Below, one piece after another: positions 21,509 through 56,590 of a DNA stretch of 64,000 nt. Below the pieces are notes generated by a model. That model was not told the origin of the DNA. It did not search any database and worked only from the letters and a program-made list of their open reading frames with translations. Source of the stretch: Patescibacteria group bacterium (GTDB lineage Bacteria > Patescibacteriota > UBA1384 > XYA2-FULL-43-10 > 1-14-0-10-43-13); assembly GCA_038078835.1 (NCBI GenBank), contig JBBTQI010000003.1, positions 2,196 to 66,195 of the forward strand. The letters are read 5' to 3'. A program made the translations under genes and the position numbers. Each line of letters opens with the position of its first letter. The first letter of the stretch is position 1.

Positions 21509-23320
21509 ATGACTATAGAGGGATTTAAAAAAGTTGTCTCTATCACTCTCCTTACGGCCACGCTGACCGCCCTTTTGCCAGTGGGACAGATCAATGCTCA
21601 AGAGCCCTCAGGACTCAATCCAGGCACTAACACCGGCCAACCCAAGACCCCAGCACCGCCCGCCGCAACCACGCCGTCACCACCAGATCCATCAGATGAA
21701 ACTAAGTGGGAATATATTGTCAGCGAATCTGGTTCTAACGCTTCAATGGCAGAAGAAAGCTTAAAAGACAAAACGATTAGCGGAAGGGTTTTCCCTACCG
21801 ACCAACGAGGGAAATCTTATTTTGAATATGACAATCAAAAATTATCTGCTTTTATGGTAACTGTAAATTCTTCCGGTAATTTTCCAAAAACGCTCTATCT
21901 TCTTACTGGATACAAGGGCTACTCCGAAAAAGAGGCGATTCTATACATGGCTCTGCCATTTTATTTCTCTGATCAAAGCGGCCTTGTAACTTCCGATAAA
22001 AATACTCTTGCCTTTATGCGAGATCCGGAAAATTATTATATCGGAGACGAAAACACACTCGACTCCGTCTCGTATTTTCAGCCCAATAGTACAATGGGTG
22101 GAAAAAGTCAGGGAAAGGTATTAAAAGAAAAACTCTATAACGGGAGGTACTTAGTCATAATACACTCCAATAATGGGGGGTTAGCCACAGGCAAGGCGCG
22201 AGAAAACATGGCTTACAACTATTTTGGCCTCAGTGCAACCAATAACTTAAATGAAATTAATTACCTGAATCGACTAATCGGTGCCGTTCAGGATAACGAA
22301 GAAATTGATGTTAGAGAGGTGAGACCGAGCACGGGAATTGATGACTGTAAAGATAAGTTTATCACTCCATTAATGAGCTCGGAAACAAACCGCCAAAAAC
22401 TAGCTGATGAGCTCAACAAATACAAAGAACAACTCGAGAAAGCCAACCAAGATAAAAAAGATCGTTATAAAAGCCTGATTAATGCCTATGATGCCATCTT
22501 GGGAGGAAAGAAGGTAACTAAAGATAACGTAAAAAACTTAATCTCCGAAAAGGATGACAAGGAGCTTTATAATACCTTCTATGCCTCTGACGAGGCAATG
22601 AAAGGGCAATATTCGGATCGTAAACCGACAAACAAAATGCTCGCCCAATTTTCAGATTTAACAACCAGTTATGCCGCCAAATTACCGTACTACAAAATGG
22701 ATTATGACAAGGGTGATATCACCACAACTGCCGCCGGAACCGGAACCGGGGCTGTTATATCAATAAGCGCTCTCGCGGCTTCAGCAAAAATAGCAGCTGG
22801 GGCGGCGGCGGCTAACGCCGCAACAGCAATAAATCCTGCAATAGTGTTGGCTGGTAATTCTTCCGGCATAGTGATGACCGGTGCCGCGCTTGGTACAGTG
22901 GGCGGTATTGCTGTTGGTGTAGCAGGAGCATCGGCAACGTATATGACCTATATAATTCAAGAAAGGGTTGCCTTCGCGCATGCCAACCAAGACGCAATAC
23001 GCTTTTATACCAAGATGTCGTTAGCTCTGTATTATGCTTACCAGTGCAACGAGTACAACAAGTGTTTAAAAGCTAACGATGATGATGCGGGTTATGTAAA
23101 TGAAAAAATAATTGCCGATTTAATTGACCACATGAACCAAGCGCAAAAAACAAAAGAGTTGGTCGAAGCCGAATGTAACGTCAGCGAGGGTGGTAAAGTA
23201 GAGGAAATGATTAAGGAAGCGCTTTGTAATCTCCTCCAGATAATTCACAATTTTACTAAATCGGTTTTTGAATTTGGTGCTACCAAGCTCGAGGAGTCAA
23301 TTGGTATCCAAGTTAAATAA
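21509..23320 (+). CDS. Secreted hypothetical protein with a Gly/Ala-rich hydrophobic C-terminal region (first gene of the T4SS-like locus)
   Basis: Start moved to MTIEGFKKVVSITLLTATLTALLPVGQINAQEP (signal peptide). A Pro/Thr linker follows. The C-terminal part has ~70 aa of G/A/I-rich helices (ISISALAASAKIAAGAAAANAATAINPAIVLAG...). Confidence 0.45.
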   Translation: MTIEGFKKVVSITLLTATLTALLPVGQINAQEPSGLNPGTNTGQPKTPAPPAATTPSPPDPSDETKWEYIVSESGSNASMAEESLKDKTISGRVFPTDQRGKSYFEYDNQKLSAFMVTVNSSGNFPKTLYLLTGYKGYSEKEAILYMALPFYFSDQSGLVTSDKNTLAFMRDPENYYIGDENTLDSVSYFQPNSTMGGKSQGKVLKEKLYNGRYLVIIHSNNGGLATGKARENMAYNYFGLSATNNLNEINYLNRLIGAVQDNEEIDVREVRPSTGIDDCKDKFITPLMSSETNRQKLADELNKYKEQLEKANQDKKDRYKSLINAYDAILGGKKVTKDNVKNLISEKDDKELYNTFYASDEAMKGQYSDRKPTNKMLAQFSDLTTSYAAKLPYYKMDYDKGDITTTAAGTGTGAVISISALAASAKIAAGAAAANAATAINPAIVLAGNSSGIVMTGAALGTVGGIAVGVAGASATYMTYIIQERVAFAHANQDAIRFYTKMSLALYYAYQCNEYNKCLKANDDDAGYVNEKIIADLIDHMNQAQKTKELVEAECNVSEGGKVEEMIKEALCNLLQIIHNFTKSVFEFGATKLEESIGIQVK

Positions 23321-23326
23321 GGTGAC

Positions 23327-26161
23327 ATGACAAGACTTTGGCAAAGAAAAATTTTTAAGACTGGAGCAATTTTAACGCCAGCTCTTCTTGTTCTGTTAAT
23401 TCCAAGCATAACTTATGCCATTGAGCCGGTCTGGAAAGTCCTCTCCGACACCACCACAGAGACCAGTTTTGGTTACGCCGTGGCCGAACGATGGAAAACT
23501 GTCCTAAACATGATTAATACATTAGTGGTGGCTGTTCTCATTTTTGTCGCCTTTGCCCAAATTCTCCACCTTAACATTAACACTTATGGCATTAAAAAGG
23601 TTATGCCCAGCTTGATATTTGCCGTTATCGCCGCCAACTTCAGTTTTCTAATTTGCCGTTTCTTAATTGATATCGCCAACATCGCCATGATCGCTCTTAT
23701 CAAACCGGAAGAAGCAAACAATGCCGCAGCTAAATTTACCGGTGCTTTTGGCACCCCTGAATTTCACAATCCTTTCGCCGTCCAGCCTGGAAAAACTCCG
23801 ATAGAATTATTGCTTGATATGATCTTTATGTTGGTCGCCGGAATAATGATGCTGATGCTGGCCTATCTCCTCTTTATTCGCAACTGGATCCTATATTTTC
23901 TGGTTGTTCTCGCTCCCCTGGCCTTTATGGCCACCGTTTTGCCGCAGACCAAAAGTGTTTTCAACCAGTGGTGGTCCAACTTTATCAAGTGGACTTTTAT
24001 GCCCGTTGTTTCGATCTTTTGGATCTGGCTAGCAAGTCTATGGATAACTGATAAAACCTCCGGGCAAGCAATCTATCTGACAACACTATTTGCCTTGGCA
24101 GCGATGTACCTTGCCCTGACAACGCCGTTTAAGATGGGCGGGGCGATTATGGGCCAGTGGGCCGGCCTGGGCAAAAAACTCTGGGGGTCAACCGGCGGTG
24201 CACTCCTGGGAAACGCCGGCGCTCTGGCAAAAGCCAAGGGTCAAAGTTGGCTTGAGTCGCAAGGTGCGGGCGACAAGTGGTATAGCAAGGCTAATCCGCT
24301 TGGCTGGCTAAAAAACTCCAAAGCAAGTTATGAGCGCGTATTGGAACACGAGAAAAAGACCCAAGAGCAGTACCAACAAAAACGCCGGGGGAATCTTCTG
24401 GGGCGCAATAAGAAATGGCAAAATATGTTTGCCGAAGAACAGACGTTTGGCGGCGACTGGGAGATGGCTGAGAAAAAGGCGATGAAAAATCTTCAAGAGT
24501 CGCCAAGGGGCCAAAGGTGGATGAAAGGTCGGGAAGAATGGCGAGCTGAGATGAAAGCCCTGGAAACGGAAATTGCCCATCGCGACAAAGAAGCCGCCCT
24601 AGGGGTCAGAGACGACCAAACAAACGCGGAGTTTTTTAAAAGAATTCTTGTAGCCACCAGACATGGTGCCATTGCCGAGAATGAAATCGCCGAACTTGAC
24701 AAGACTTTATCGGTTAATTTTGCCCGGAAAGAGGGGCCATTTGCAAATGATAAAGACCGGCGATTGTCCGACCTGTACTTTGCCACCCTAACTCGTAGTA
24801 AAGAACTTGACGAAATGGTCACAAAGGCCGACAACGATCGAGTCGAAGCTATACTTGCCGACCAGCTCCATGTCCATGACACCAAAGAAGCAATTGACAG
24901 AGGTACACGAGAATTGCAAAAGTTAAACCAACAAGAAGAAAGAATGCAAGAATTGATGCGGCGCGAACCAGCAAATGCTGCTGAACTAGTTGAACTAGGA
25001 GAGCTTCAACGCCAAGGGGGCGCAAGAAACATAAGGAAAAGTGAAATAGTTAGCGAACAAAACAGTGCTATCGCCAAAGCCCGCACTTTTGTCGAGGAAG
25101 GTATTGAGCAAGGCAAGACCTACCTTGCCGGTATGGTCGAGGGCAATACCATTAGAGGCTTTGCTGGACTAGTTGGCAACGATGAAGATCTAGGGAAACT
25201 AATGGCTTCCCGAGCCGGCAAGCTTATGAGTGCTGAAGTAAAAAGTGATGCCGACAAGTTACTTGACAAGATGACACCGGCAATGATCGCCGAAGAATTA
25301 CAAAACATCAACCCGCAAGTTTTAGAAAATTTTAAACAAGGCCGAAGATACGTCAATGTCCCCCTAGGACCTGAAGAAGGAGACGTGCCCACACTTAATC
25401 GAAAAATTGAAGCTCATGTTTTGGCTCTGGCTAAAGTTGCGCGCCAGGCAAATCACCCCGAGGCGCCCGATGCTCAAGTTGGTCTTGTTGGTATGCTAAC
25501 AGATAACGGCCTAGCCAAAGCAATAAATGCTTACAACAACCGCGTCCAACCTGCAGAACAGATCCAGACAAGAGAAGATCTTATCAGGAAGATGCGAGAC
25601 GGGGGAAGACCCGGAAGAGCCGCCTTTACCGCTGTTGTTAATCAACGTGACGTTGGCCTTCTGGATAATCCATCAGGTTATCTCTCGCTTGGTACGGATG
25701 AGGGGTCAACAGAGACCGCCAAAAGAATTATTCAGACCGTACAGCAGATCGACCCTCCCAACCTCCAGGCGCAAAATCTTAATTATCTCTACACAATAGC
25801 TTCCAAGGCTCACACTCCAGAATTCAGGGATATCGTCAAATTATTAAAACAAAACGGTGAATACACTCGAGAACTCTTAAGAGAAGCGCAAAAATCCCGA
25901 TATTTATTGGCAGCAGAAGAAACTCTGCATCGCGCCGGGATTACTGTTGATCAACACAACACCAGAGAATTAGCCCAGATCATTAAGACTGAACTGAAAA
26001 AGAGTGTTAGGGAGCGTAATCCCGAAGCGATGGTTGGCGGTATAAATAACTACATCCGAGGGAAAAATCCCAACACCAATTTCAGTATCGAGTCTATTTT
26101 GCACGAAACCCAAACACCAAATACGAAAGCAGCGAGTAATCCGACGGAGCCACGCAGATGA
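23327..26161 (+). CDS. Polytopic membrane protein, VirB6/TrbL-like, with a long C-terminal coiled-coil extension
   Basis: The N-terminal ~270 aa contain about six TM helices (LTPALLVLLIPSITYA, TLVVAVLIFVAFAQIL, LIFAVIAANFSFLICRFLIDIANIAMIAL, IFMLVAGIMMLMLAYLLFI, WILYFLVVLAPLAFMATVL, MPVVSIFWIWLASLWI). The next ~650 aa are charged and helical. The call is by architecture and context only. Confidence 0.4.
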   Translation: MTRLWQRKIFKTGAILTPALLVLLIPSITYAIEPVWKVLSDTTTETSFGYAVAERWKTVLNMINTLVVAVLIFVAFAQILHLNINTYGIKKVMPSLIFAVIAANFSFLICRFLIDIANIAMIALIKPEEANNAAAKFTGAFGTPEFHNPFAVQPGKTPIELLLDMIFMLVAGIMMLMLAYLLFIRNWILYFLVVLAPLAFMATVLPQTKSVFNQWWSNFIKWTFMPVVSIFWIWLASLWITDKTSGQAIYLTTLFALAAMYLALTTPFKMGGAIMGQWAGLGKKLWGSTGGALLGNAGALAKAKGQSWLESQGAGDKWYSKANPLGWLKNSKASYERVLEHEKKTQEQYQQKRRGNLLGRNKKWQNMFAEEQTFGGDWEMAEKKAMKNLQESPRGQRWMKGREEWRAEMKALETEIAHRDKEAALGVRDDQTNAEFFKRILVATRHGAIAENEIAELDKTLSVNFARKEGPFANDKDRRLSDLYFATLTRSKELDEMVTKADNDRVEAILADQLHVHDTKEAIDRGTRELQKLNQQEERMQELMRREPANAAELVELGELQRQGGARNIRKSEIVSEQNSAIAKARTFVEEGIEQGKTYLAGMVEGNTIRGFAGLVGNDEDLGKLMASRAGKLMSAEVKSDADKLLDKMTPAMIAEELQNINPQVLENFKQGRRYVNVPLGPEEGDVPTLNRKIEAHVLALAKVARQANHPEAPDAQVGLVGMLTDNGLAKAINAYNNRVQPAEQIQTREDLIRKMRDGGRPGRAAFTAVVNQRDVGLLDNPSGYLSLGTDEGSTETAKRIIQTVQQIDPPNLQAQNLNYLYTIASKAHTPEFRDIVKLLKQNGEYTRELLREAQKSRYLLAAEETLHRAGITVDQHNTRELAQIIKTELKKSVRERNPEAMVGGINNYIRGKNPNTNFSIESILHETQTPNTKAASNPTEPRR

Positions 26162-26595
26162 ATGATAAAGATTTAAATCTAATCATACGCCAATTGATGG
26201 TGCTTGAGGTGGCAGTGGAAACAATCGGCGTCTTGTCCGACCCTGATTATATTAATGATATACTTTTAAGGATTAAAACTCTAAGAGTGCATACTCCCCA
26301 GAAGATAATATCAACACACCAACACCTGCTAGAAACGCTGAATAAGGTCGACAGCCCCACTACGCGCCGTGAACAAATCCCCCCTCTTGTCCGCGATGCT
26401 CTGACACAAGCTGGAGTCGGGACCCAAGTCCCTCCGAGTCAACCCCAAGCCCGCGCTTGTCTACTAAAAACCATCAAAGCAACAGAAGCTTATATTGATT
26501 ATTTCAACGATTACCCCAATCAGCCGATTGATGTCGACAAGGTTAATGAGATAGCCATTAGAAAATTGCTGCGACAAAAGTTTGGGGAGGAATAG
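26158..26595 (+). CDS. Hypothetical protein
   Basis: 145-aa ORF that overlaps the previous stop (ATGA) and sits in the same operon-like run; no recognisable motif. Confidence 0.35.
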   Translation: MNDKDLNLIIRQLMVLEVAVETIGVLSDPDYINDILLRIKTLRVHTPQKIISTHQHLLETLNKVDSPTTRREQIPPLVRDALTQAGVGTQVPPSQPQARACLLKTIKATEAYIDYFNDYPNQPIDVDKVNEIAIRKLLRQKFGEE

Positions 26596-26597
26596 TT

Positions 26598-27740
26598 ATG
26601 ACCGAATTGGAAAAAATTCACTCTGTTGAAGATTATTTCACCACGATCGTTCCGCCGGAGCGAGGCGGGGTCTTGCAGGAAAAATGGCAAGAGTTGCGTG
26701 CGACGGGCAAGATCGATGTTGAGAGTTTAGGCAAGATACCCGATAGCGAGGGACGATTTAGGGTTGTTGAGGCTCTGGCTTCCTTGATTGAAAAAGGTAA
26801 GATCAATGCAGAGGATATCTCCGACCTGATTGAATCCTTCGGCTACGAAGAGAGGAGTTCTATAAATTACAACGGTGCTCATGGCGTGGCCGGATTTTAC
26901 AGCGGCCACGTTCGGGTTCATAACAAGCTTTTTGAGCGCTACGCCGAGGGAGAATTTGCCGGGCAATATCGGCATGAACTCGATCACAATATCGCCCACG
27001 AGATCGCCCACGCCATCATCGAATATGCCGACAAAAGTGAGAATATTCAACTCGCCGCCACTGAAGGATTGGAGACCGAAGTAGAAACCCCTCTCGAGTT
27101 AATTGCAGAAGCTTTAGGAGGCATTGACATTGATGCCGAGTCAATCACTGTGCAGGAAACAAAAGGTGCTCCGGCCGTCAACCGAAAAGAGCGCTTGGCT
27201 GAGGCCTTGGCAGTCTATATCGCTTCCGGCGGAGAAGAAAACGAATTTTTAAGGCGGCGGATCAGTCTTATCCAAAAAGATCATCTGGAAACATTCTTTG
27301 TCGCGCCAGCAAGCAAAGAGCTGAGTTTGACTAACACAATTGCTCAGGCAACCGAAAGAGGAAGAGTATTAATCGCATCGACAAAAGCACTTTTTCAAGC
27401 CATAGACGACAATTGGGAGAGACTAAAAGCCGGCGCTAAATCCGCCGCTCAAGGCGATACTGAGATCGACGGCATCTTTGATCTCTGGGGTCCCGAGAGT
27501 CAGCTAAGCGACTTGACTCAAGCGGCAACATTTTCTCCGGCCGCATCAGCACCGTCTCAACAACCAACGGCACCGGCCGAAAATAAAGCCGCCGGACAGT
27601 CTGGCCGGAAAACAAACTCCATTAGCCATCTTCCCGGCGAAAAGGCGGGGCATTCAAACGAAGTACTAAGCGCCTTGGGGGGATTACTTAAATCTTTTGA
27701 GGAGATAAATCCGATAAAAATTACACCGGCCAGTGTTTAG
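26598..27740 (+). CDS. Hypothetical protein with an HExxH-like motif (possible zinc-metallopeptidase fold)
   Basis: YRHELDHNIAHEIAHAII contains HEIAH. The Ser/Ala/Pro-rich C-terminus is low complexity. Confidence 0.4.
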   Translation: MTELEKIHSVEDYFTTIVPPERGGVLQEKWQELRATGKIDVESLGKIPDSEGRFRVVEALASLIEKGKINAEDISDLIESFGYEERSSINYNGAHGVAGFYSGHVRVHNKLFERYAEGEFAGQYRHELDHNIAHEIAHAIIEYADKSENIQLAATEGLETEVETPLELIAEALGGIDIDAESITVQETKGAPAVNRKERLAEALAVYIASGGEENEFLRRRISLIQKDHLETFFVAPASKELSLTNTIAQATERGRVLIASTKALFQAIDDNWERLKAGAKSAAQGDTEIDGIFDLWGPESQLSDLTQAATFSPAASAPSQQPTAPAENKAAGQSGRKTNSISHLPGEKAGHSNEVLSALGGLLKSFEEINPIKITPASV

Positions 27741-27986
27741 GGGGCGGCATTGCGGAGCGAAATACGTCCTCTCGCCAAAACCAAACGTCCGGATTTTTTG
27801 GCGCTTCTGCTCAAGTGCCCGAGGGCAATACCTGAACTTAAATTGTAGCAACTAACGATAGCCGGACAGAAACCCTACTGTCAAGAGCGAGTAAGCACAA
27901 ATCAACGAGGCCGCCGGTATCAACACCGTCACGTCAAAATGAACCCATAGACATCACATCCGGAAAACGCACTAAAACTATCATTA

Positions 27987-28036
27987 CCCTCACCCTAAAC
28001 CCTCTCCCTTTCGGGGAGAGGGAATAAGAGGGAGTG
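27987..28036. repeat. REP-like palindromic element, family 1, intergenic copy
   Basis: ccctcaccctaaaccctctccctttcggggagagggaataagagggagtg. Confidence 0.6.
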
Positions 28037-28069: not shown

Positions 28070-28099
28070 TTGACAAATTGGCAGCAAAATTGATATAAT
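28070..28099 (+). promoter_or_regulatory. Putative sigma70 promoter TTGACA-N18-TATAAT upstream of abiEi
   Basis: ttgaca at 28070-28075 and tataat at 28094-28099. Confidence 0.4.
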
Positions 28100-28128: not shown

Positions 28129-28749
28129 ATGAAATACAATCAGCTCAGATTACAGATAAACAAGCCTTATTTCACGCTGGACGATCTGCGCTTGCGGGGA
28201 CTCAAGGTTTACAGCTACCAATTTTCTCTTTGGCAAAAAAGGGGATATATTAAACAGCTCAAGCGCGGCACATATGTCTTTGCGGACAAAGAGGACGAAC
28301 TAGCACCCCCCGAGATCTCCTTTCTTCTCTATCAGCCGAGCTATCTGAGCTTAGAAACAGCGCTAAACCATTATGGGCTGATTCCCGAGATCGTTCAGGC
28401 TCAAACCGCCGTCACCGCCAAAATCAATCGCCGCTTTAAAAACTCTTACGGTTCTTTTATTTATCGGCACTTGAAACCCTCTCTTTTTTTCGGCTACACC
28501 CCCGCGCAGACAAAATACGGAAAATATTTGCTGGCCGAACCGGAAAAGGCCCTGCTTGATTATCTGTATCTAAATTTGGGAAAAATAAATACCCAAAATG
28601 ATATCGAAAACTTGCGCCTGAATTGCCAAATCCTGCGAGAAATCATCACCAAAGGGAAACTTGACCGCTATCTTAAAATATTTGATAGCCGGAAACTCAA
28701 TCGAACAATTAACCAACTCTTAAGGCAATGCTCACCTACGAACAGCTGA
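28129..28749 (+). CDS. AbiEi-family antitoxin / transcriptional regulator (type IV TA system, abortive infection)
   Basis: N-terminal FTLDDLRLRGLKVYSYQFSLWQKRGYIKQLKRGTYVF (AbiEi_4-like wHTH). Overlaps the downstream toxin gene. Confidence 0.7.
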   Translation: MKYNQLRLQINKPYFTLDDLRLRGLKVYSYQFSLWQKRGYIKQLKRGTYVFADKEDELAPPEISFLLYQPSYLSLETALNHYGLIPEIVQAQTAVTAKINRRFKNSYGSFIYRHLKPSLFFGYTPAQTKYGKYLLAEPEKALLDYLYLNLGKINTQNDIENLRLNCQILREIITKGKLDRYLKIFDSRKLNRTINQLLRQCSPTNS

Positions 28750-29504
28750 AAAAATATTATTCCGATGGTCTAGCCGCTAAAATGCCGAAAAATATTTTAG
28801 TGGAGTATCTTCAGTATGAACTTCTTGACTCCCTCTTTAAACAAAAGAGGAGCGAGTTGCTGGTATTTATCGGCGGGACAGCAATCCGAATAATTTATGG
28901 CAGCAGCCGGTTTTCCGAGGATTTGGATTTTGACAACTTTGGCCTGCCGTTTGATGAATTTGAAGAAATTGTGGACAATGCGGGAAAAGATTTAGAGTTA
29001 AAGGGGTTCTCTGCTGAATTGCGCTTTGTCGAGAAGGGCGCCTACCACTGCTATTTAAAATTCCCGGAAATCCTCTATGACAACAACCTCTCCAGCTTGC
29101 TTCAGGAAAAAGTGCTCATTCGCCTTGATACAGTTAATAAAGAGCCCTCTTATCGGCCGGTTATTCATACTCTCAACAAATTTGATGTCTTTCGCAATAT
29201 TTTGGCGGCGCCGGCAGATATTATATTGGCCCAAAAACTGATCACGATTATGGAGCGCAAAAGGGAGAAGGGGCGGGATTTTTACGATGCCAGCTTTCTC
29301 CTTGGTCTGACTAAACCTGATTTTCTCTACATCAAAAAGACGACCGGACTAGCCCAGGATGAATTTGGGGGGAAATTTTTGGAACGTTTGAATCAGCTTG
29401 ATTTCAACTTTTTGGCCAAGGATGTGGAACCGTTTCTGGCCGCCCCGGAACAGTCGGAGCGGATTAAAAACTTTAAAGACTTTGTCGTCCCCCGCCTCCG
29501 CTAA
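28728..29504 (+). CDS. AbiEii/AbiGii-family nucleotidyltransferase toxin (DUF1814)
   Basis: LVFIGGTAIRIIYGSSRFSEDLDFDNF signature of the AbiEii nucleotidyltransferase fold. Confidence 0.75.
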   Translation: MLTYEQLKKYYSDGLAAKMPKNILVEYLQYELLDSLFKQKRSELLVFIGGTAIRIIYGSSRFSEDLDFDNFGLPFDEFEEIVDNAGKDLELKGFSAELRFVEKGAYHCYLKFPEILYDNNLSSLLQEKVLIRLDTVNKEPSYRPVIHTLNKFDVFRNILAAPADIILAQKLITIMERKREKGRDFYDASFLLGLTKPDFLYIKKTTGLAQDEFGGKFLERLNQLDFNFLAKDVEPFLAAPEQSERIKNFKDFVVPRLR

Positions 29505-29520: not shown

Positions 29521-29549
29521 TTGTTTTGCGTCGAGCGTTTTGCTATAAT
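29521..29549 (+). promoter_or_regulatory. Putative sigma70 promoter TTGTTT-N17-TATAAT upstream of prgI-like gene
   Basis: ttgttt at 29521-29526 and tataat at 29544-29549; GAGGGGAA ribosome-binding site before the ATG at 29581. Confidence 0.45.
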
Positions 29550-29580
29550 CAAACAAGCAGGCTAATTAAGTTGAGGGGAA

Positions 29581-30130: not shown

Positions 30131-31189
30131 ATGTCCCAATTTTCAACTCAACAATCAATCGACATTGCCGGGATTAAGGAGGGTGTCGTCATCCTCAAGA
30201 ATGGCGGCTACCGCCTGATCTTTTCGGTGGCGGCAATTAACTTTGCCCTAAAGAGCGAGCAGGAACAGAACTCGATTATTTTCCAGTACCAAAGCTTTTT
30301 AAACTCCCTTCACTTCCCCATTCAGATCGTGATGAGATCCAAGCGTTTAGACCTCGACCCGTATTTGCAAAAAGTCTCCAAGCTGGCCGGAGATCAGCAA
30401 AACGAGTTATTGCGAATTCAAACTGAGGATTACGTCGACTTTGTCGGCAAACTCATCAATATCGCCAACATTATGAAAAAGACCTTCTACGCCGTCATCC
30501 CCTACCAGCCCCTCTCTCTCCAAAACACGGGCGCTCTGGGCAAACTGTTCCGGCGAGAAAAAACGGTGACAGAGCTTAAGATCTCTGAAACGGAGTTCAA
30601 TCATAATATCCAGGAGCTTAAACAGCGCGCCGGCGTTGTCGCCAGCGGCCTGGGCTCGATGGGCCTGCGCTGTGTTCAGCTCTCAACCGAGGAGGTCATT
30701 GAGCTCTTTTATCAAGTCTACAACCCCGAAGAAGCCGGAACGGAGAGAGTCAGCGATGCCGAGAGCCTGACCTCGCCCGTTGTCATTCACAAAAGCGAAG
30801 CGCCCGAAGAAGCCGGAGGTCAAAGGCCGGAAGGTGAAGGCGATAATACGGCCGAGAGCCTAAGGCCGAAGGCCGAAGGGGGTCAAGCTGAAGGCGAAAG
30901 GCCGGAGGCTGAAAGCCAAAGAGAAGAGGTAATTGACAATTCGGCCTCGGTACTGGCGCAACAAAAAGAACAAGCTATGCTCCACCGCCAGGAGATGATG
31001 AAGGAGGGAGAGCGCAATATAGCCCAAGGCCAAAGGCCGGAGGCTGAAGACGACAACACCCCCAATCCGCCACCGGCAACGCCCGAACCAATAACTCAAA
31101 CGCCGAATCAAACCACTACTCAAACAAATCAGCCCGACAACTCGAACCCCGAGGAACAGGATGAAACCCAACAGCACAAGCCCCAATAA
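30131..31189 (+). CDS. VirB4/TraC-family ATPase, N-terminal fragment (split gene) with a low-complexity repeat-derived tail
   Basis: DIAGIKEGVVILKNGGYRLIFSVAAINFALKSEQEQNSIIFQYQSFLNSLHFPIQIVMRS matches the VirB4 N-terminus of Gram-positive conjugation systems. The C-terminal ~130 aa (EAPEEAGGQRPEGEGDNTAESLRPKAEGGQAEGERPEAE...) are encoded by family-2 repeats at 30812-30918 and 31021-31048. Confidence 0.55.
   Translation: MSQFSTQQSIDIAGIKEGVVILKNGGYRLIFSVAAINFALKSEQEQNSIIFQYQSFLNSLHFPIQIVMRSKRLDLDPYLQKVSKLAGDQQNELLRIQTEDYVDFVGKLINIANIMKKTFYAVIPYQPLSLQNTGALGKLFRREKTVTELKISETEFNHNIQELKQRAGVVASGLGSMGLRCVQLSTEEVIELFYQVYNPEEAGTERVSDAESLTSPVVIHKSEAPEEAGGQRPEGEGDNTAESLRPKAEGGQAEGERPEAESQREEVIDNSASVLAQQKEQAMLHRQEMMKEGERNIAQGQRPEAEDDNTPNPPPATPEPITQTPNQTTTQTNQPDNSNPEEQDETQQHKPQ
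30812..30918. repeat. GC-rich palindromic element, family 2, inside the virB4 N-terminal fragment
   Basis: ggaggtcaaaggccggaaggtgaaggc...gcctaaggccgaaggccgaaggg...gaaaggccggaggctgaaagcc. Confidence 0.55.
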
Positions 31190-31592
31190 AGGCTCCCTCC
31201 AATCCCCTCTCCTCCGAGAGGAGAGGGTGAGGGTGAGGAGAAAATTAAGAGTTAACTCAACTCCAGCTGAACAGATAATCTGGCACAAAATAAGATCAAG
31301 ACAATTAAACAACCTGAAGTTTCGGCGGCAACATCACTTTGGAAAATATATCGCCGATTTCTATTGCCCAGAGAAGAAATTGGTAATCGAGATCGATGGT
31401 GATGTTCATGATTTAGAATGTCAGAGAGAGCACGATAAAAAAAGAGGCCATTATTTAACGAGCTTAGGTTTGCGTGTCTTACACATTACCAATGATGAAG
31501 TGAGAAATAATCTTACAGGAGTACTAGAAAGCATCTTGCTGCAACCCCATCCCTCACCCCAACCCTCTCCCTTAAAAAGGGGGAGGGAGTAA
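31161..31592 (+). CDS. DUF559-family endonuclease-domain protein (Vsr/restriction-endonuclease-like fold) inserted between the two virB4 halves
   Basis: RKLRVNSTPAEQIIWHKIRSRQLNNLKFRRQHHFGKYIADFYCPEKKLVIEIDGDVHD...LGLRVLHITNDEV matches the DUF559 consensus. It is flanked by family-1 palindromes at 31194-31228 and 31551-31592. A likely alternative GTG start lies near 31231. Confidence 0.65.
   Translation: MKPNSTSPNKGSLQSPLLREERVRVRRKLRVNSTPAEQIIWHKIRSRQLNNLKFRRQHHFGKYIADFYCPEKKLVIEIDGDVHDLECQREHDKKRGHYLTSLGLRVLHITNDEVRNNLTGVLESILLQPHPSPQPSPLKRGRE
31194..31228. repeat. REP-like palindromic element, family 1, left flank of the DUF559 cassette
   Basis: tcccctctcctccgagaggagagggtgagggtgagg. Confidence 0.6.
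31551..31592. repeat. REP-like palindromic element, family 1, right flank of the DUF559 cassette
   Basis: tccctcaccccaaccctctcccttaaaaagggggagggag; encodes the DUF559 C-terminal tail HPSPQPSPLKRGRE. Confidence 0.6.
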
Positions 31593-31602
31593 TAAGGTTT
31601 AT

Positions 31603-33441
31603 ATGGCAAATCCAGCTGATCAAAATATGACCGCCTCTCCGGATGCGCGAACGATTGCCCAAAGCAATGTCGAGGCGAGAGAAAAAGCATCCAAACTCGC
31701 CTTTTGGAAACAGAACGGCGAGGATTTCTCGCGGGGCGCAACCTCCGTCCGCGATATCATCGCGCCGGCCGCCTTTGTTGTGAACTCAAACTACCTTCAG
31801 ATCGGTCCGCACTATGCCCGCACCCTCTTTGTCTTTACCTATCCCCGCTACCTCGAAACCAACTGGCTCTCGCCCATTATTAATTACGATATTACCGTCG
31901 ATATGGGAATGTACATCCATCCGCTCGAGTCCAAGGATGTAATGCACCAGTTAAAGACCCAGGTCGGCAAACTTGAGTCGACGATGATGATCGAACAGGA
32001 GAAGGGCCAGCCGCGCGACCCGGAGATCGAAACGGCTCTCGGCGACGTTGAGGCCCTACGCGACGTCCTCCAGCGCGGCGAGGTCCGCCTCTTTCAGTTC
32101 GGGCTCTATTTTACACTCTACGCCAAGTCGCTCGAGGAGCTAAAAACCATGACTGAGCAGCTTGAATCTACCCTCGGCGGTCTCCTTATCTACACCAAAG
32201 AGTCGCTCTTTCAGATGGAGCAGGGTTTTACCGCCACCCTGCCCTTAATGCACGACAAACTGGAGATCCTGCGCAACCTTGACACCAGCTCTCTCTCCTC
32301 CACCTTCCCCTTCACCTCCTCTGAGCTGACCCAGGACGACGGCATCCTCTACGGCATCAACCGCCACAACAATTCGCTGATAATATTCGACCGGTTTCAT
32401 CTTGAGAATGCCAACAGCGTCGTCTTTGCCAAATCCGGTTCGGGTAAATCTTACTTTGTCAAGCTTGAAGCCCTGCGTTACCTGATGCTTGGCACCGATA
32501 TCATCATCGTCGACCCGGAGAAGGAGTACAAAACGCTCTGCGATGCCATCGGCGGCAGTTACCTTGACATCTCTCTTAACTCTGATAAACGGATAAACCC
32601 CTTTGATCTGCCCCTGAATCCCAAAGCGGAGGCCAATGAGACGGGCGAGGATGTCCTCCGCTCCAACATCGCCTCCCTTCACGGCCTGATTAATCTGATG
32701 GGCGGCGGCCTCTCGCCGGAGGAAGACGCGATCGTCGACAAGGCGCTCTACGAAACCTATGCCCTAAAGGATATTACCGCCGACCCGGAGAGCCAGAAGA
32801 ACGAACCGCCTCTGCTTCAGGATTTCTACAACGTTCTGGGCAATATGCAGGGCACCGACTCTCTCCGCGCCAAGCTCTCCAAATACACCGAGGGCTCCTT
32901 TGCCTCCCTCTACAACCAGCCGACCAACTTTGAATTGAAGCCCGGTATGGTCGTCTTCTCTGTGCGCGATCTGGAGGAACAGCTCCGTCCCCTGGCGATG
33001 TATATGATCTTAAACTATATCTGGACCAAGATCCGCCAAAATATGCGGCGGCGGATTATGATTATCGATGAAGCCTGGTGGATGATGCAGTTTGAAGATT
33101 CGGCCAAATTCCTTCACGGCCTGGCTAAGCGGGGCCGGAAGTATTACCTGGGCCTGACGATTATCAGCCAGGATGTCGAGGACTTTCTGGGTTCGCGCTA
33201 CGGCAAGGCGGTGGTGGCCAACTCCTCGATGCAGATCCTGATGAAACAGTCCACGGCGTCGATTGACGTTGTCGCCGATGTCTTTAACCTGACCGAGGGG
33301 GAAAAGTACCTCCTGCTCGAATCTGACGTCGGCGAGGGGCTCTTCTTTGCCGGCCTGAATCACGTCGCCGTCAAAGTCGTCGCCTCTTACGCCGAGGATC
33401 AGATCATCACCACCGATCCGAAGCAATTACTCGGAGAGTAA
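31603..33441 (+). CDS. virB4: VirB4/TraC/CagE-family T4SS ATPase, C-terminal (ATPase) portion
   Basis: Walker A VVFAKSGSGKSYF, Walker B-like RIMIIDEAWWMM, and a mid-region DIIAPAAFVVNSNYLQIGPHYARTLFVFTYPRYLETNWLSP typical of VirB4. Confidence 0.8.
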   Translation: MANPADQNMTASPDARTIAQSNVEAREKASKLAFWKQNGEDFSRGATSVRDIIAPAAFVVNSNYLQIGPHYARTLFVFTYPRYLETNWLSPIINYDITVDMGMYIHPLESKDVMHQLKTQVGKLESTMMIEQEKGQPRDPEIETALGDVEALRDVLQRGEVRLFQFGLYFTLYAKSLEELKTMTEQLESTLGGLLIYTKESLFQMEQGFTATLPLMHDKLEILRNLDTSSLSSTFPFTSSELTQDDGILYGINRHNNSLIIFDRFHLENANSVVFAKSGSGKSYFVKLEALRYLMLGTDIIIVDPEKEYKTLCDAIGGSYLDISLNSDKRINPFDLPLNPKAEANETGEDVLRSNIASLHGLINLMGGGLSPEEDAIVDKALYETYALKDITADPESQKNEPPLLQDFYNVLGNMQGTDSLRAKLSKYTEGSFASLYNQPTNFELKPGMVVFSVRDLEEQLRPLAMYMILNYIWTKIRQNMRRRIMIIDEAWWMMQFEDSAKFLHGLAKRGRKYYLGLTIISQDVEDFLGSRYGKAVVANSSMQILMKQSTASIDVVADVFNLTEGEKYLLLESDVGEGLFFAGLNHVAVKVVASYAEDQIITTDPKQLLGE

Positions 33442-33497: not shown

Positions 33498-34748
33498 ATG
33501 TCTGAAAAACCAAACCAAAATCCTGTCGAGCCGAATCAAACAGTTGAGAACACAACTGAAGTTAAAAACACCGGTCTTTCCATAAAGACAATTTTGATAG
33601 TGGCTATCTGCTCATTCCTGCTCCTCTTTGGCGGCGGAGCCGCCATCGCCGTCCCCCTCGCCTTCCTCGGTCTCGTCGATCCCGGCGAACCCTCACCGCT
33701 TGCGGCAAAGATTTTCGGAAGTAGTGGAGATAATAGTTGCTGGCTATCAGATGATGCATTTAAAGACACAACTACTATCACGGAGGCTGATCAAATAGCA
33801 CGACTGATGGGTAACGACAGGAGACTATCGAATCCCCCAGAACAAAAAGATCGACTTAAAGTGATCATTGATGAGTCGAGAAGAAAAGTGGTCAATGATA
33901 AACAAACCGGCATAAACCCTGCGATCTTGGTTTCTTTTTGGGCGGGAGAACAGGGTTTCAGTTATGATTCTAACGATAAATATGACCCCGATCGCGATAT
34001 GAAAGCTTTTGGTTGTAGTGTCACTGGACCAGGCGTTAACAGCTATCCGTCATTTGAAGGACAAGTAAAATGTGTCCTAGATCAAGTTCAAAATGCAATC
34101 AACAAAGAGGGAAATTATAGGGAACCGGAAATTCCCGGTACCTGGGATCGTCTAATTTATCATTATATCGGCACAGAAGATCAGAAAGTTGCGCTAAAAA
34201 CTTATGGCCATGTCACCACCGCAAGTAATACCAGGATCAAAATATTGAAGAAGCTCGTCCCCGACCAAGTCACCTGTGCGGCAATTCAAGGTGCAAGCAC
34301 ATCAAATAAAATCGTTGGTGCCGCCCGCGGGCAAGTCGGATACAAGACTCAGAAATCAGATTGTGCCATTTACAACGAAAAAACTATCGACGAGAGCCGG
34401 CAGTATCAATGGTGCGTCAGTTTTGTCTCCTGGGTCTATCGCAAAGCCGGGCATAATGTTCCTCTTATGGTCGGTACCGAAGAGATTATGAATTATTTTA
34501 AAAACGAGCAAACGTGGATCGAAAGAAAAGATATTAAATCAGCAAACGATATTAAGGCCGGAGATGTCTTAATTGAAACCAGCGCCTCGAGCAGCAGCGG
34601 CAAGCATGCCGGGATTATTGATATCGAAAACGGCCGCTATTTCACCATTGAGGGCAACACCTCAAAAGATATGGTCGAGCGTCGAGAGATCGGTGATATG
34701 AACGCTTTTGTCAGGAATCTTGTCGACCTCGGCCGGATAAAGGAGTAG
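33498..34748 (+). CDS. Membrane-anchored CHAP-domain peptidoglycan hydrolase (T4SS-associated lytic enzyme)
   Basis: N-terminal TM helix. The C-terminus has QWCVSFVSWVY (catalytic Cys) and GKHAGIIDIENGRYFTIEGNTS (catalytic His), consistent with CHAP. Confidence 0.6.
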   Translation: MSEKPNQNPVEPNQTVENTTEVKNTGLSIKTILIVAICSFLLLFGGGAAIAVPLAFLGLVDPGEPSPLAAKIFGSSGDNSCWLSDDAFKDTTTITEADQIARLMGNDRRLSNPPEQKDRLKVIIDESRRKVVNDKQTGINPAILVSFWAGEQGFSYDSNDKYDPDRDMKAFGCSVTGPGVNSYPSFEGQVKCVLDQVQNAINKEGNYREPEIPGTWDRLIYHYIGTEDQKVALKTYGHVTTASNTRIKILKKLVPDQVTCAAIQGASTSNKIVGAARGQVGYKTQKSDCAIYNEKTIDESRQYQWCVSFVSWVYRKAGHNVPLMVGTEEIMNYFKNEQTWIERKDIKSANDIKAGDVLIETSASSSSGKHAGIIDIENGRYFTIEGNTSKDMVERREIGDMNAFVRNLVDLGRIKE

Positions 34749-34749
34749 A

Positions 34750-36018
34750 ATGAAAAATGATATTTATCAATATCTGAACGCGCGGATATATTTGGCGCTC
34801 TTTGTGATGGTCTCGGCTCTCTTTGGCCTCTACTGGTTTGCGACTCACTCCTACCTCACCATCAAGGTCACGCCGCCGGACGCTATGGTCACGATCAATA
34901 ACGCGCCGGTCTCGCTCTCCGCCGCCGGCAAAATAAAACGGGCTCTCGCGCCGGGCGCCTACTCGCTTCGGATTGAGGCTGACGGCTACGTCGGCTATAT
35001 CGAGGAGGTTGCCCTCAAACGAACTCAGCGCAAAACCGTCTCGGCCAGCCTCACGGAGGCGCCAAAGGTCCAGACTCTGGCGGAATCAGCGAAATTCCTC
35101 TCCGCCGGGCCGGACTTTAACACCATCCACTATCTGGGCGATGATGGCAGAACGCTCTACCGCGCCAAGACAACACTGGAAAACGGCGAGGTCAAACTCA
35201 AAGAGCACCTCCCGATAACCGAGCCGCGGTTCTCCGGCCTTGAGGAGATTGTCTGGTCGCCCGGCAAGGAGCTGGCTCTCCTGCGCAAGAGCGAGGGCAT
35301 CTATCTCTTCGATTTTAAAAAATACGATTTTATCAATCAAACCGAGACATTGTGGGCCAAGAGCGCCGGCAGTCTTGCCTGGTCGCCGGACAACTCCAAA
35401 ATCGCCTATTATTACGCCGACGACAAGGAGAAATCATTAATCTTTACTAATATTGCCAACACCGAACCGGTACGGGTGGCTAATCTGGCCGAGATGAATA
35501 TCGTCAATCCGATTCTGCGCTGGTCGCCGGACTCCGAATGGCTCCTTGTCATACCTCGTAATACTTTTTCATACGATTTAAGCAAAGTTTATGCCTTTAA
35601 CGCCTACAGTCGCTCCTTTATCGAACTGACGGAAACGGGCAGCCAGCTTGACGCCAGCTTCTCGCCGGACGGCAACAGAATCATCTACGGCACGTATTCG
35701 GAGCTCTCCAGCAATCCCGTCACTTCTCTAATATCGATTATGGATAAAGACGGCGCAAACAAACGCTCGCTTAATTTACGCGCCGATATCAGCCGGATGG
35801 CCTGGAAAAAAGACAGTAAAACCTTAGTCGCGGCGACTTATAATCCCTCAAGTCACAAAGAGTCGCTCTTTGGCTTTGACACCGAGAAGAAGCAGAAGAT
35901 TGATTTCTCCGTTAATGCTCTTGATTCGGGTTACATCCGCACTCTGGCCATTTCTGACGACGAAAAGATCATCATTTTTGAGTCGGGGAACGGGATATAC
36001 GGCATCGCAATAGAGTAA
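34750..36018 (+). CDS. Membrane-anchored PEGA-domain plus TolB-like beta-propeller protein
   Basis: TM helix, a PEGA-like LTIKVTPPDAMVTINNAPV...GAYSLRIEADGYV, then repeated WSPD / FSPDG motifs (WSPDNSKIAYY, RWSPDSEWLLV, FSPDGNRIIYG). Confidence 0.5.
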   Translation: MKNDIYQYLNARIYLALFVMVSALFGLYWFATHSYLTIKVTPPDAMVTINNAPVSLSAAGKIKRALAPGAYSLRIEADGYVGYIEEVALKRTQRKTVSASLTEAPKVQTLAESAKFLSAGPDFNTIHYLGDDGRTLYRAKTTLENGEVKLKEHLPITEPRFSGLEEIVWSPGKELALLRKSEGIYLFDFKKYDFINQTETLWAKSAGSLAWSPDNSKIAYYYADDKEKSLIFTNIANTEPVRVANLAEMNIVNPILRWSPDSEWLLVIPRNTFSYDLSKVYAFNAYSRSFIELTETGSQLDASFSPDGNRIIYGTYSELSSNPVTSLISIMDKDGANKRSLNLRADISRMAWKKDSKTLVAATYNPSSHKESLFGFDTEKKQKIDFSVNALDSGYIRTLAISDDEKIIIFESGNGIYGIAIE

Positions 36019-36245
36019 ATCTCAAACAACAAGCACCAAATATCAAATAATTTCCAAATCACAAACCTCAAATAACAAATAAATTCCAGATTGCAATTAC
36101 CAGCTACAAAAGCGTTTGAAAATTAGAGATTGGGACTTGGAACTTATCTAAGATTTGTTATTTGGGATTTAAATTTTACTTGTGGTTTGGTGCTTGGTAT
36201 TTGAGGTTTCTCCGCTTTGGCGGAGAGGAGGGGTTTTGGCAACCG
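36019..36245. repeat. ~220 bp AT-rich MITE-like inverted-repeat element, copy 1
   Basis: ...caagcaccaaatatcaaataatttccaaatcacaaacctcaa...ttacttgtggtttggtgcttggtatttgaggtttctccgctttggcggagaggagg. The arms are imperfect reverse complements. It ends in a small hairpin plus GGAGAGGAGG. Confidence 0.5.
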
Positions 36246-37672
36246 GTCGGCAAAATCGGGAGGAGTACGAGGCCTTAAGGCGCAACCTTAAGGCGGCAAT
36301 CGGGCGGCGGAGTCCGACCGTTTATAGCATTGCCCAAAAGATGAACTCCTTGGGCGTCTCCGACCCCGAGCTGGGACCGATCATTGAAGCCCTCGCTTCC
36401 CGCCAATTCAGCGCTATGGCCGAAGCCCAGCGCCATTTTGGCGTGAAAACACCATCAAACCGCCCTGATTCGGCCAGACCATCGGAATCGCCAGGGAGCG
36501 GAACTGAAACCGGCACTCCCTTTGAAAATGCCGGCGAGGGCATCAAGGCCAAGAAACCGAGTGATATCGGCCGGATCGGACAGGTCGCTAAAAATATCAG
36601 AGACCTGCAAAAGCGAGCTCAAAACTACCTTCGCGCCCTCAAGGCGGCCGGCATTTTGGCCAATCCCTGGACATGGGTGGTGATCGGCATTGCGATTTTA
36701 ATTATCCTAATTATTCTCTTTGTCGTCATTCTCTCGATTGTTTTGAACAAAAACCAGATGACGCCCCATCCCGGCGGCAAATCCCAAGCCCAGGCCGCCG
36801 ACCCCATCGCCGACCGCGAATTTGTCCGGAAATTACTGGCTCTAACCGGAGACCAAGATATTAAAAACGAGGCGATCGCCGGCAACAATAAAAAACTGCT
36901 AACCCAAATCGACGACCTCATTACCGAGATCAGAAAGCCGGAAAACGCCGACCTTCCCGATCGCGACCAAATTAAAAAGGACTATCTCGCCATCAGGGAT
37001 ATCGCTCAAAATATCAGCCCCAGCAATTCCAATAATGCCGCTCTCTACGACCAGGTTATCGCCAAGCTTAAAGAAACAAGAAAATATCTCTCCGCTCCCC
37101 TCGCCGCCTACCCCGGCCCTTCGACCTTGCCGCTAAATTTGCCTCGGGATCAAATTAGAACCGGGAATAGCCTTCACCATTGCACCCGCTGGCGGCCAGA
37201 TCACTGTTTTAAAGGCTCTGGTCACGGCACCTTTGTAATGAACAGTAGCAAGCGCTCCGATGCCGTTGATCTCTCACCCACTACAAAACCTGTCCACGAT
37301 GTCAAAATCATCGCCGTTTTCGACGGCACTATTAAAGATAAAGAGCATGGCGGTGTAGACACCAAGAAAGAGTATTTTTATCTCACCGATACAACTGGCC
37401 AATATAAGGCGGTTTATGCCCACGTTAAGCTCAATGATGGTACAAAAAATGTTAAGAAGGGCGATGAAATCGGCTATATTCTCGACAGTATCGGCCATCT
37501 TCACTTTGAGCTTTACCAAATTACAAAGATCGGTTTGAGGCCATTAAATTATACCGAGGAAGATATTAAAGCTTGCGGCCTGGATAAAAATCCGCTCACT
37601 CCCAACTGCCCCAACGGCCGCCGCATCGGTGATTATTATTGGGATTACCTTACTTTGATTTTGCAGAAATGA
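36182..37672 (+). CDS. M23-family (LytM-like) metallopeptidase with an N-terminal TM helix; start uncertain
   Basis: C-terminal HCTRWRPDHCF...GDEIGYILDSIGHLHFELYQ (M23 HxxxD / HLH motifs). TM helix WTWVVIGIAILIILIILFVV. The listed ATG lies inside the MITE-like element; the real start is probably downstream (for example Met ~36344). Confidence 0.65.
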   Translation: MVWCLVFEVSPLWRRGGVLATGRQNREEYEALRRNLKAAIGRRSPTVYSIAQKMNSLGVSDPELGPIIEALASRQFSAMAEAQRHFGVKTPSNRPDSARPSESPGSGTETGTPFENAGEGIKAKKPSDIGRIGQVAKNIRDLQKRAQNYLRALKAAGILANPWTWVVIGIAILIILIILFVVILSIVLNKNQMTPHPGGKSQAQAADPIADREFVRKLLALTGDQDIKNEAIAGNNKKLLTQIDDLITEIRKPENADLPDRDQIKKDYLAIRDIAQNISPSNSNNAALYDQVIAKLKETRKYLSAPLAAYPGPSTLPLNLPRDQIRTGNSLHHCTRWRPDHCFKGSGHGTFVMNSSKRSDAVDLSPTTKPVHDVKIIAVFDGTIKDKEHGGVDTKKEYFYLTDTTGQYKAVYAHVKLNDGTKNVKKGDEIGYILDSIGHLHFELYQITKIGLRPLNYTEEDIKACGLDKNPLTPNCPNGRRIGDYYWDYLTLILQK

Positions 37673-56586: not shown

Positions 56587-56590
56587 AATA

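Follow-up and report, generated by a model that had tools for sequence, protein, structure and literature searches.

A chromosomal, origin-proximal type IV secretion locus, very likely of the Patescibacteria kind, in a Berkelbacteria-like groundwater bacterium

Which machine is encoded by a run of conjugation-like genes on the chromosome of an ultra-small bacterium, and what does it move? We addressed this question for 64,000 nucleotides (nt) of DNA (hereafter the window; contig JBBTQI010000003.1, positions 2,196 to 66,195 of the forward strand, assembly GCA_038078835.1) from a Patescibacteria group bacterium, recovered from the 0.2 µm fraction of Hainich groundwater. The original prediction, made from the sequence alone, had described here a minimal type IV secretion system (T4SS) in Gram-positive style (PrgI, VirB4, VirB6 and cell-wall hydrolases), with neither a relaxase nor a coupling protein in the window, and had doubted that it was a classical integrative and conjugative element (ICE). 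Our analysis bears this out, since PrgI, VirB4, VirB6 and the CHAP hydrolase are all backed by profile or fold evidence. The locus is very likely a chromosomal, origin-proximal Patescibacteria T4SS of a Berkelbacteria-like groundwater organism, derived from the mating-pair formation (MPF) class FATA, with its DNA-processing parts lost. Systems of this kind have already been published (2020-2025), and the locus is a good example that introduces no new principle. All credible open reading frames (ORFs) between 19262 and 45960 are on the plus strand; the genes listed in the prediction exist and are co-directional on that strand, their coordinates agree with ours to within a few codons, and only start codons differ.

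A two-gene VirB4 and its membrane partners

The ORF at 31603-33441 (+) encodes a VirB4 ATPase of 612 amino acids (aa), full length for its clade. Its top-scoring curated model is the firmicute model conju_CD1110 of NCBIfam (367.8 bits, cutoff 325, profile positions 177-732 of 752), which represents the VirB4 of CTn2 (CD1110), from the conjugative transposons of Clostridioides. Pfam P-loop_TraG also matches (99.5 bits), and among structures in the PDB we found the C-terminal domain of VirB4 (4ag5, E = 3.3e-48) and TrwK (E = 8.5e-7). Both the Walker A (GSGKS) and the Walker B (IIDEAW) motifs can be read in the sequence. At least 8,000 homologs were scored, the best 120 of which are 582-698 aa long and 75-83% identical, with 95-100% query coverage; the named ones among these 120 are Patescibacteria, Berkelbacteria or plain 'bacterium', and the nearest relative among the matches listed is 83% identical. 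By these comparisons the protein appears to be allied to the VirB4s of Patescibacteria, with a monoderm-type (FATA) affinity.

CD1110 is a single protein of 752 positions, whereas in the window these positions are shared between two genes, 177-732 lying on VirB4 and 2-82 on residues 7-84 of a TrsD/TraC-like protein (352 aa; 30131-31189, +). The latter consists of a part of about 215 aa that resembles the N-terminus of VirB4, followed by a low-complexity acidic tail, and its residues 11-123 also match positions 109-233 of VirB4_plasma, the NCBIfam model for mycoplasma VirB4. The TrsD family model itself matches weakly (30.4 bits against a cutoff of 200). A precomputed assignment places the protein in PF26593 (TraC-like); this assignment was not recovered in direct Pfam and NCBIfam scans. 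A profile search against PDB sequences found no match, and fold comparison alone succeeded: with an AlphaFold2 (AF2) model of residues 1-220 (predicted local distance difference test, pLDDT, 76), the top 14 Foldseek matches in the PDB were all TrwK/VirB4 chains of the R388 T4SS (E = 6.5e-4, prob 1.00), the lower-ranked matches being noise. The model supports a VirB4 fold for TrsD, and the profile positions would place it at the N-terminal side. Taken together, TrsD and the 612-aa ORF appear to correspond to one firmicute VirB4.

The VirB4 had been predicted to be split. As to domain content this was correct, with CD1110 positions 2-82 on one product and 177-732 on the other, but nothing has been disrupted and the two-gene state is old and conserved. 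A scan with one genome per species yielded 51 loci, and gene comparisons were made across 54 related loci; TrsD is encoded directly 5' of VirB4 in about 45 of these 54, in several classes. Since, in addition, the VirB4 homologs agree in length and coverage, the 120 listed of the 2,675 homolog clusters of PF26593 are standalone proteins of 284-383 aa, and the association of TrsD with VirB4 has been reported for 1,664 genes (PMC12102498), the two-gene VirB4 is not a lesion. An apparent TrsD-VirB4 fusion in one locus (L040, an ORF of 715 aa) proved to be an artefact of a scaffold gap, translated as a run of X.

The tail of TrsD is variable. In the window, imperfect direct repeats of 36-39 nt at 30760-31100 generate its acidic, low-complexity region of 'GQRPEAE' type; Berkelbacteria-like relatives have tails of similar length and different sequence, and TrsD of the Paceibacteria type (205-219 aa) has no tail.

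The gene preceding trsD (29581-29976, +) encodes the PrgI/VirB3-like protein of the original prediction, with two transmembrane (TM) segments and a Pfam PrgI match of 46.2 bits (cutoff 27); its orthologs stand directly 5' of TrsD in 37 loci. About 30-40 nt 5' of prgI there is an extended -10-like element, which reads TGCTATAAT in the window (29533-29551) and TGCTATACT in the closest relative, L002 (8480-8492), and which suggests that prgI, trsD and virB4 form a unit with a putative promoter of its own.

The fourth component of the predicted translocon is an extended VirB6-like protein of 944 aa (23327-26161, +). A TM scan places about 7-8 helices in its first 270 aa or so, followed by a hydrophilic, helical tail of about 650 aa; the prediction had a coiled-coil tail of that length. 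The protein and its orthologs have precomputed Pfam matches to TrbL_3, and six of 22 orthologs match Pfam TrbL (best 5.6e-8). Further, a profile built from the 22 orthologous membrane domains retrieved TrwI, the VirB6 of R388 (7o3v_F), with E = 2.4e-4, as its sole PDB match below E = 0.5. Orthologs are found 5' of PrgI in 25 loci.

Gene order, chromosomal setting and cargo

The arrangement of these genes recurs in dozens of related genomes, far beyond chance. The closest loci (76-83% identity) are mostly from metagenome-assembled genomes labelled Berkelbacteria, and loci of Paceibacteria, Yanofskybacteria, Dojkabacteria/WS6 and Gracilibacteria follow at about 50% identity. In the relatives that have the gene order of the window, with VirB4 about 78-83% identical, an Xer-like recombinase (-), PAP2 (-), BacA, a 233-aa TM/TPR protein, a variable secreted protein and VirB6 are followed by a variable slot, PrgI, TrsD, VirB4, a hydrolase, a beta-propeller protein, an M23-like protein and a giant protein. 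Comparison of synteny, put forward with the prediction as a check, thus finds the order recurring as a T4SS in relatives and matching the published Patescibacteria T4SSs (PMC12102498, PMC10633639, PMC12857230). Two contigs labelled otherwise, L022 (Nevskiaceae, Gammaproteobacteria) and L023 (Bathyarchaeia), carry a TrsD-VirB4 pair of Patescibacteria type beside dnaA/dnaN and are probably mis-binned Patescibacteria contigs.

Short gaps dominate within the locus (6 nt, a 4-nt overlap, 2 nt, 10 nt, 1 nt, and a 4-nt overlap between the M23-like and giant genes); longer ones are found only around a pair of AbiE genes, described below, and 5' of trsD, of the CHAP gene and of the M23-like gene. Upstream lie GDH, MnmA, IscS, NifU, LeuRS, TsaD, FemAB, a Mur ligase, a tyrosine recombinase, PAP2 and BacA, and directly downstream recF, dnaN, dnaA (46304-50212 for these three), rnpA, yidC, jag and tRNA-Ser. 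Paceibacteria-type loci, too, have dnaA/dnaN within 5-10 kb of VirB4.

Beyond dnaA, 10-25 kb from the T4SS locus, we found an array of five VirB2-like pilin genes (55739-62419, -) that the original prediction had overlooked. They are located at 55739-56134, 56190-56513, 56591-56932, 56953-60567 and 62063-62419, all on the minus strand, and match Pfam T4SS_pilin (PF18895, cutoff 26.6) with 42.0, 40.6, 34.2, 29.3 and 34.1 bits, respectively. The product of 56953-60567 (1,204 aa) has its pilin domain at the C-terminus only, after an N-terminal region of about 1,100 aa. A 466-aa protein with a weak Big_1 match is encoded between two of the pilin genes. Pilin arrays have been reported for Patescibacteria T4SSs (PMC12102498, PMC10633639).

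The ORFs scanned in the 64-kb window, which included every non-nested ORF of at least 300 aa, yielded no relaxase and no coupling protein of the VirD4/TcpA type; the single P-loop ATPase of T4SS type is VirB4. PilB, encoded at 52915-54564, belongs to the type II secretion/type IV pilus family and is not a coupling protein.

In all this the locus resembles what is known from other members of the phylum. A T4SS was noted in Saccharibacteria and other lineages of the candidate phyla radiation in 2020 (PMC7427843). Wang et al. (2023) found by transposon sequencing that the T4SS of Ca. Southlakia epibionticum, in which relaxase and coupling proteins were likewise not recognisable, is essential for epibiotic growth (PMC10633639). 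Quinonero-Coronel et al. (2025) surveyed 3,035 genomes, in which most VirB4s were monophyletic and nested in MPF-FATA, usually near TrsD, PrgI and VirB6 and often close to dnaA (PMC12102498). The subject has been reviewed, and this T4SS is the first on which the carrying bacterium has been reported to depend for its survival (PMC12857230).

The published Patescibacteria systems (PMC12102498, PMC10633639) have in common with the window PrgI/VirB3 followed by TrsD and then VirB4, a VirB6, hydrolases 3' of VirB4, a VirB2-like pilin array, the lack of a relaxase or nearby coupling protein and a chromosomal location beside dnaA/dnaN. They differ in that their pilin array is inside the cluster, whereas that of the window is across the origin, and in that those papers make no mention of three proteins of the window, namely its TolB-like propeller, its degenerate M23 protein and the co-translated protein of about 2,800 aa. 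The plasmids pGO1, pSK41 and pIP501 (TrsC-TrsD-TrsE-TrsF-TrsG; MPF-FATA) share with the window the order VirB3-like protein, TrsD, VirB4 and wall hydrolase, as well as a monoderm architecture in which outer-membrane core proteins are absent. In contrast to these plasmid-borne systems, the locus of the window is chromosomal and vertically inherited and lacks a relaxase, a TrsK/TraJ coupling protein and a recognisable VirB8-like TraM/TrsL; it does have VirB2-like pilins, which are missing from the Gram-positive systems. A VirB6 membrane domain with a very large hydrophilic extension is also known from the 'extended VirB6' of Rickettsiales (PMC7648143, PMC12857230), but there both the lineage and the tail sequence are unrelated, the tail of the window being helical and about 650 aa long; homology was tested for the membrane domain only. 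The locus is thus a clean, complete example of the Berkelbacteria type, to which we add structural support for TrsD sharing the VirB4 fold.

How might such a system work? The identities and the arrangement of its parts are observed, and the steps are taken from knowledge of the families and from the transposon sequencing in Saccharibacteria. PrgI, TrsD/VirB4 and VirB6 would form a membrane translocon with TrsD/VirB4 as a two-polypeptide energiser, hexamers of which, docked on PrgI and VirB6, would power the building of a wall-spanning conduit or pilus. The anchored hydrolases would open or remodel peptidoglycan, that of the cell itself and possibly that of a host, and the pilins would form an external filament. 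The cargo, moved between epibiont and host cell, would be protein or something other than relaxase-bound DNA.

An import of DNA, which would feed nucleotides or genes to a cell that does not synthesise them, as do archaeal Ced or Helicobacter ComB, is the alternative that survives best, and we regard it as unlikely. Like those systems, the window has a VirB4 and neither a coupling protein nor a relaxase; the VirB4 also scores weakly against CedB (50.2 bits) and CedD (24.9 bits), and loci of the ABY1 class adjoin comF, recG and radA (PMC12102498). The Ced scores are, however, far below their cutoffs (700 and 600) and below the CD1110 score, and the locus has no DNA-binding or DNA-processing gene. 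What makes import less likely is that competence of S. epibionticum needs ComEC and type IV pili and is dispensable: deletion of comEC ends transformation and leaves viability unaffected, while the T4SS is essential (PMC12857230, summarising PMC10633639).

Two membrane genes upstream of virB6 complete the conserved order. The first (20171-20872, +) encodes a membrane-anchored, helical/TPR-like protein of 233 aa with one TM segment at residues 32-50 and no Pfam family; in 10 related loci an ortholog (28-49% identity) follows BacA and precedes the T4SS genes. The second, for which a secreted protein had been predicted at 21509-23320, does encode a secreted or membrane protein, of 615 aa if it starts at 21473 and of 603 aa from 21509 (end at 23320, +). 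By sequence and TM scan it has a signal peptide, a Pro/Thr-rich linker and two C-terminal TM segments. It is fast evolving, with no match in Pfam, NCBIfam or the PDB and no detectable homolog in the related loci; in L002, L003 and L004 a gene for 347-692 aa occupies its position.

Wall-active and giant proteins downstream of virB4

Two cell-wall hydrolases had been predicted 3' of virB4, and one of them is sound. The gene at 33498-34748 (+) encodes a membrane-anchored CHAP peptidoglycan hydrolase (29 bits, cutoff 26; TM at residues 32-50), to which we assign a VirB1-like role. From what is known of the CHAP family we take the Cys of QWCVSF and the His of GKHAG, both of which can be read in the sequence, to be its catalytic pair. 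The catalytic domain at this position differs between loci, being CHAP in the window, Peptidase_M74 in L003 (11859-13136) and Peptidase_M15_4 in L004 (11917-13083), while the N-terminal region is common to the window and L004 proteins. The differing domains may reflect differences in wall chemistry among these bacteria or their hosts.

The second hydrolase, a membrane-anchored, divergent LytM/M23-like protein (36182 or 36236 to 37672, +; TM at 166-184), is less secure. Its Peptidase_M23 match (24.6 bits) is below the cutoff of 28.7, and in five aligned M23-type orthologs an SDAVD-type sequence is found where the zinc-binding HxxxD is expected, so that the first zinc-ligand His is gone. The HLH is kept in the window and lost in three of the five orthologs. 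Given SDAVD in place of HxxxD, the catalytic competence of this protein is uncertain on sequence grounds.

Between these two genes, at 34750-36018 (+), lies a membrane-anchored protein for which the PEGA domain and beta-propeller of the prediction were both recovered (PEGA, 26 bits, cutoff 20.8; TolB-like propeller, 49.7 bits). It is conserved in the Berkelbacteria-like clade, with orthologs in the same position in 12 loci at 32-47% identity; 20 loci were matched in all.

The last gene of the locus (37639 or 37669 to 45960, +) encodes a giant membrane-anchored protein of 2,763 aa. Its ATG overlaps the stop codon of the preceding M23-like gene, to which it is, from this overlap, predicted to be translationally coupled. 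The protein has no match in Pfam or the PDB and is found only in this T4SS clade. Its family comprises 46 homolog clusters, 43 of them of 2,300-3,160 aa and none with a Pfam domain; many members are on contigs of the same size as those of the listed VirB4 homologs, and in 16 related loci tblastn places the gene 3' of the M23-position gene.

Two motifs are the most conserved in the giant family, namely 'SAHxxGQAVDISEIDDIRCT', which is invariant and N-terminal, and 'THIGF' at the very C-terminus, and they offer a lead to its function. They look similar to two motifs of the LAS/M15 peptidoglycan peptidases, SxHxxGxAxD and the final histidine. The M23-position proteins of L020 (3678-5039) and L010 (14533-16254) read 'SMHYYGKGVDLS ... 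HIHIGF' within one small domain. The giant might then be the working end of the T4SS, a wall peptidase of LAS/M15 type split by a helical-repeat insertion of about 2,250 aa, which would tether to the host wall or pierce it. We consider this idea quite doubtful. It is built on the two short motifs only, and all statistical tests were non-significant: Pfam gave nothing for the whole giant, for a chimera of its N- and C-terminal parts or for the L020 and L010 proteins. With hmmsearch, profiles of the N-terminal part and of the N+C chimera run against all locus ORFs found as best non-giant matches L016 (E = 0.0086-0.025) and L020 (E = 0.8-2.8). In hhalign, the giant and the M15_4 hydrolase of L004 aligned over a 15-residue motif only (probability 2%), and a PDB profile search with the chimera alignment found nothing below E = 0.17. 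An AF2 model of residues 190-720 shows helical repeats with confidence, the motif region having a pLDDT of 31-50, and Foldseek found nothing below E = 0.49 for this model. A LAS/M15 peptidase is therefore unsupported in each of these searches and is retained as a lead only.

The propeller, the degenerate M23 protein and the giant are conserved accessories absent from published surveys. Together with the hydrolase position and its differing catalytic domains they are among the new details of this locus, as are the fold match of TrsD to VirB4 and the three intergenic insertions described below. All of these would merit further study in relatives that can be cultivated.

The variable slot, inserted genes and mobile neighbours

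Between virB6 and prgI the locus has a slot whose content changes from relative to relative. In the window (26158-27740) it holds the two proteins that had been listed as unknowns, one of them with an HExxH-like motif. The first (145 aa; 26158-26595, +), of which the first 4 nt overlap the end of virB6, has no family match in Pfam, NCBIfam or PADLOC and, among the related loci, an ortholog in L002/L005 only (45% identity). The second (380 aa; 26598-27740, +) is a cytoplasmic protein in which the motif is a double HExxH, HELDHNIAHEIAH, kept in the L002 ortholog; it has no match in Pfam, NCBIfam, PADLOC or the PDB and belongs to a narrow, fast-evolving family with 8 representatives among 1.84 billion proteins. 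Other relatives (L003:7715-8533; L004:7122-8340; L006:6531-8522; L019:6114-7722) have at least three kinds of cytoplasmic helical protein in the slot, with no similarity to the window's pair detectable by BLASTP, and the L019 protein, read by eye, looks like an IS200-type transposase. The slot could hold lineage-specific secreted effectors. In the window it has also taken up an AbiE cassette.

The embedded AbiEi/AbiEii module of the original prediction is indeed present, both proteins being full length by PADLOC. AbiEi, the antitoxin/regulator (206 aa; 28129-28749, +), scores 196.1 bits over profile positions 1-197 of 199, with a Pfam AbiEi_4 match of 23.6 bits below the cutoff of 25; AbiEii, the nucleotidyltransferase toxin (258 aa; 28728-29504, +), scores 282.9 bits over positions 1-251 of 254 and 76.5 bits in Pfam. 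The genes overlap by 22 nt. At 28070-28099 (+), 30 nt 5' of abiEi, lies a candidate sigma-70 promoter (TTGACA-18-TATAAT with TG), which matches the consensus at 12 of 12 positions and is the best of 28 sites scanned; its function is deduced from this match. On its 5' side the cassette has the stop codon of the 380-aa gene, and on its 3' side the TGCTATAAT-type element that precedes prgI in the window and L002. With its own consensus promoter, and 5' of this element, it is probably located between two transcription units. A complete AbiEi-AbiEii pair with overlapping genes and, putatively, its own promoter is as expected for AbiE type IV toxin-antitoxin/abortive-infection systems, which have adjacent genes for a wHTH antitoxin and a DUF1814 nucleotidyltransferase; unlike the known ones, this pair occupies a gap between T4SS genes of an ultra-small bacterium.

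Two further genes, both overlooked in the original prediction, appear to have entered in the same way. A cassette at 31161-31592 (+), in the spacer between trsD and virB4, encodes a DUF559 protein (Vsr-like PD-(D/E)xK endonuclease; Pfam, 109.6 bits) and is bounded by a 19-nt inverted repeat (31220-31238 and 31552-31570), with a hairpin at each end as read by eye. The spacer measures 413 nt in the window as against 14 nt in L002. The other gene, at 20900-21448 (+), encodes an NYN-domain nuclease (100.3 bits in Pfam, 39.5 bits in PADLOC). AbiEi, AbiEii, DUF559 and NYN have no tblastn match in any of the 54 related loci, the window genome alone having them inside the cluster, and on clustering at 90% identity each stays a singleton. 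Their absence from the related loci argues that they are lineage-specific, and on sequence evidence we regard them as defence or selfish genes that were inserted later. The operon thus tolerates such insertion in its intergenic gaps, three times in this case.

Did these insertions break the operon, leaving a system that no longer works? The cluster contains three foreign genes, 413 nt separate trsD from virB4 where the two normally abut or overlap, and the M23 domain lacks a zinc ligand. Decay is nevertheless very unlikely, because every T4SS reading frame is intact, conserved and of orthologous length. Every insertion is intergenic and has the orientation of the T4SS genes. VirB4 shares 83% identity with its nearest relative and has both Walker motifs, SDAVD is common to the five aligned M23-type orthologs and hence no recent lesion, and the same arrangement is found on 6 independently assembled contigs.

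Some of these observations do weigh against a functional Patescibacteria T4SS as the reading of this locus. In the relatives examined, trsD and virB4 adjoin or overlap each other, whereas in the window the DUF559 cassette keeps them apart, and a lowered expression of virB4 is a possible consequence. The M23 domain may be catalytically dead, to judge from its sequence. No VirB8-like component (PrgL, TraM, VirB8) was matched in the Pfam and NCBIfam scans. Local Pfam and NCBIfam scans of the window's own VirB6-like protein gave no VirB6 match, so its identity is based on the precomputed matches and the ortholog profiles. Finally, the scan covered 64 kb, and other parts of the genome could encode a coupling protein; many distant VirD4 homologs are known in Patescibacteria (PMC12102498).

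That the locus is itself a mobile element, on the other hand, is extremely improbable. An ICE or its remnant, integrated by a recombinase and sending DNA to other cells, would fit the homology of VirB4, PrgI and TrsD to firmicute conjugation proteins, the Phage_integrase gene 3 kb upstream and the mobile genes close by (IS200, a RhuM fragment, AbiE and DUF559), but it is rejected on the conserved synteny and the lack of a relaxase and of a VirD4-type protein in the window: the recombinase, PAP2, BacA and the T4SS genes in full keep their order in relatives that share no more than 78-80% identity in VirB4, the locus runs straight into recF-dnaN-dnaA, the GC content of 0.43-0.56 is the same in locus and flanks with no compositional island, and relaxases were found in only 103 of 3,035 genomes of the phylum-wide survey (PMC12102498). 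A search for a flanking integrase had been proposed, and one is present, the tyrosine recombinase at 17364-18560 (-). Since relatives have it in the same position, at 51-76% identity, it is not an ICE integrase, and by sequence it looks like a chromosomal Xer-type gene.

Apart from the Patescibacteria T4SS and its insertions, further small mobile or defence genes lie amid the housekeeping genes upstream. A RhuM/Bro-N-type fragment (11088-11540, -; PADLOC PDC-S05, 162 bits) adjoins LeuRS, and an IS200-type Y1 transposase (13033-13683, -) overlaps the 5' end of the TsaD ORF.

A palindromic element is also repeated in this DNA. A solo copy just 5' of AbiE (27985-28030) aligns with both ends of the DUF559 cassette; it was found by pattern match, with 0 matches expected by chance, and by a motif scan. 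The palindrome, CCCTCTCC-loop-GGAGAGGG, occurs five times in the window, at 4542, 12637, 28000, 31205 and 31563. Two copies bound the DUF559 cassette, one is the solo copy, and two are inside the ORFs of MnmA (487 aa) and TsaD (528 aa), both of which are unusually long and have Pfam matches broken into several stretches. This suggests an in-frame insertion of the element into housekeeping genes, comparable to the palindromic elements of Rickettsia.

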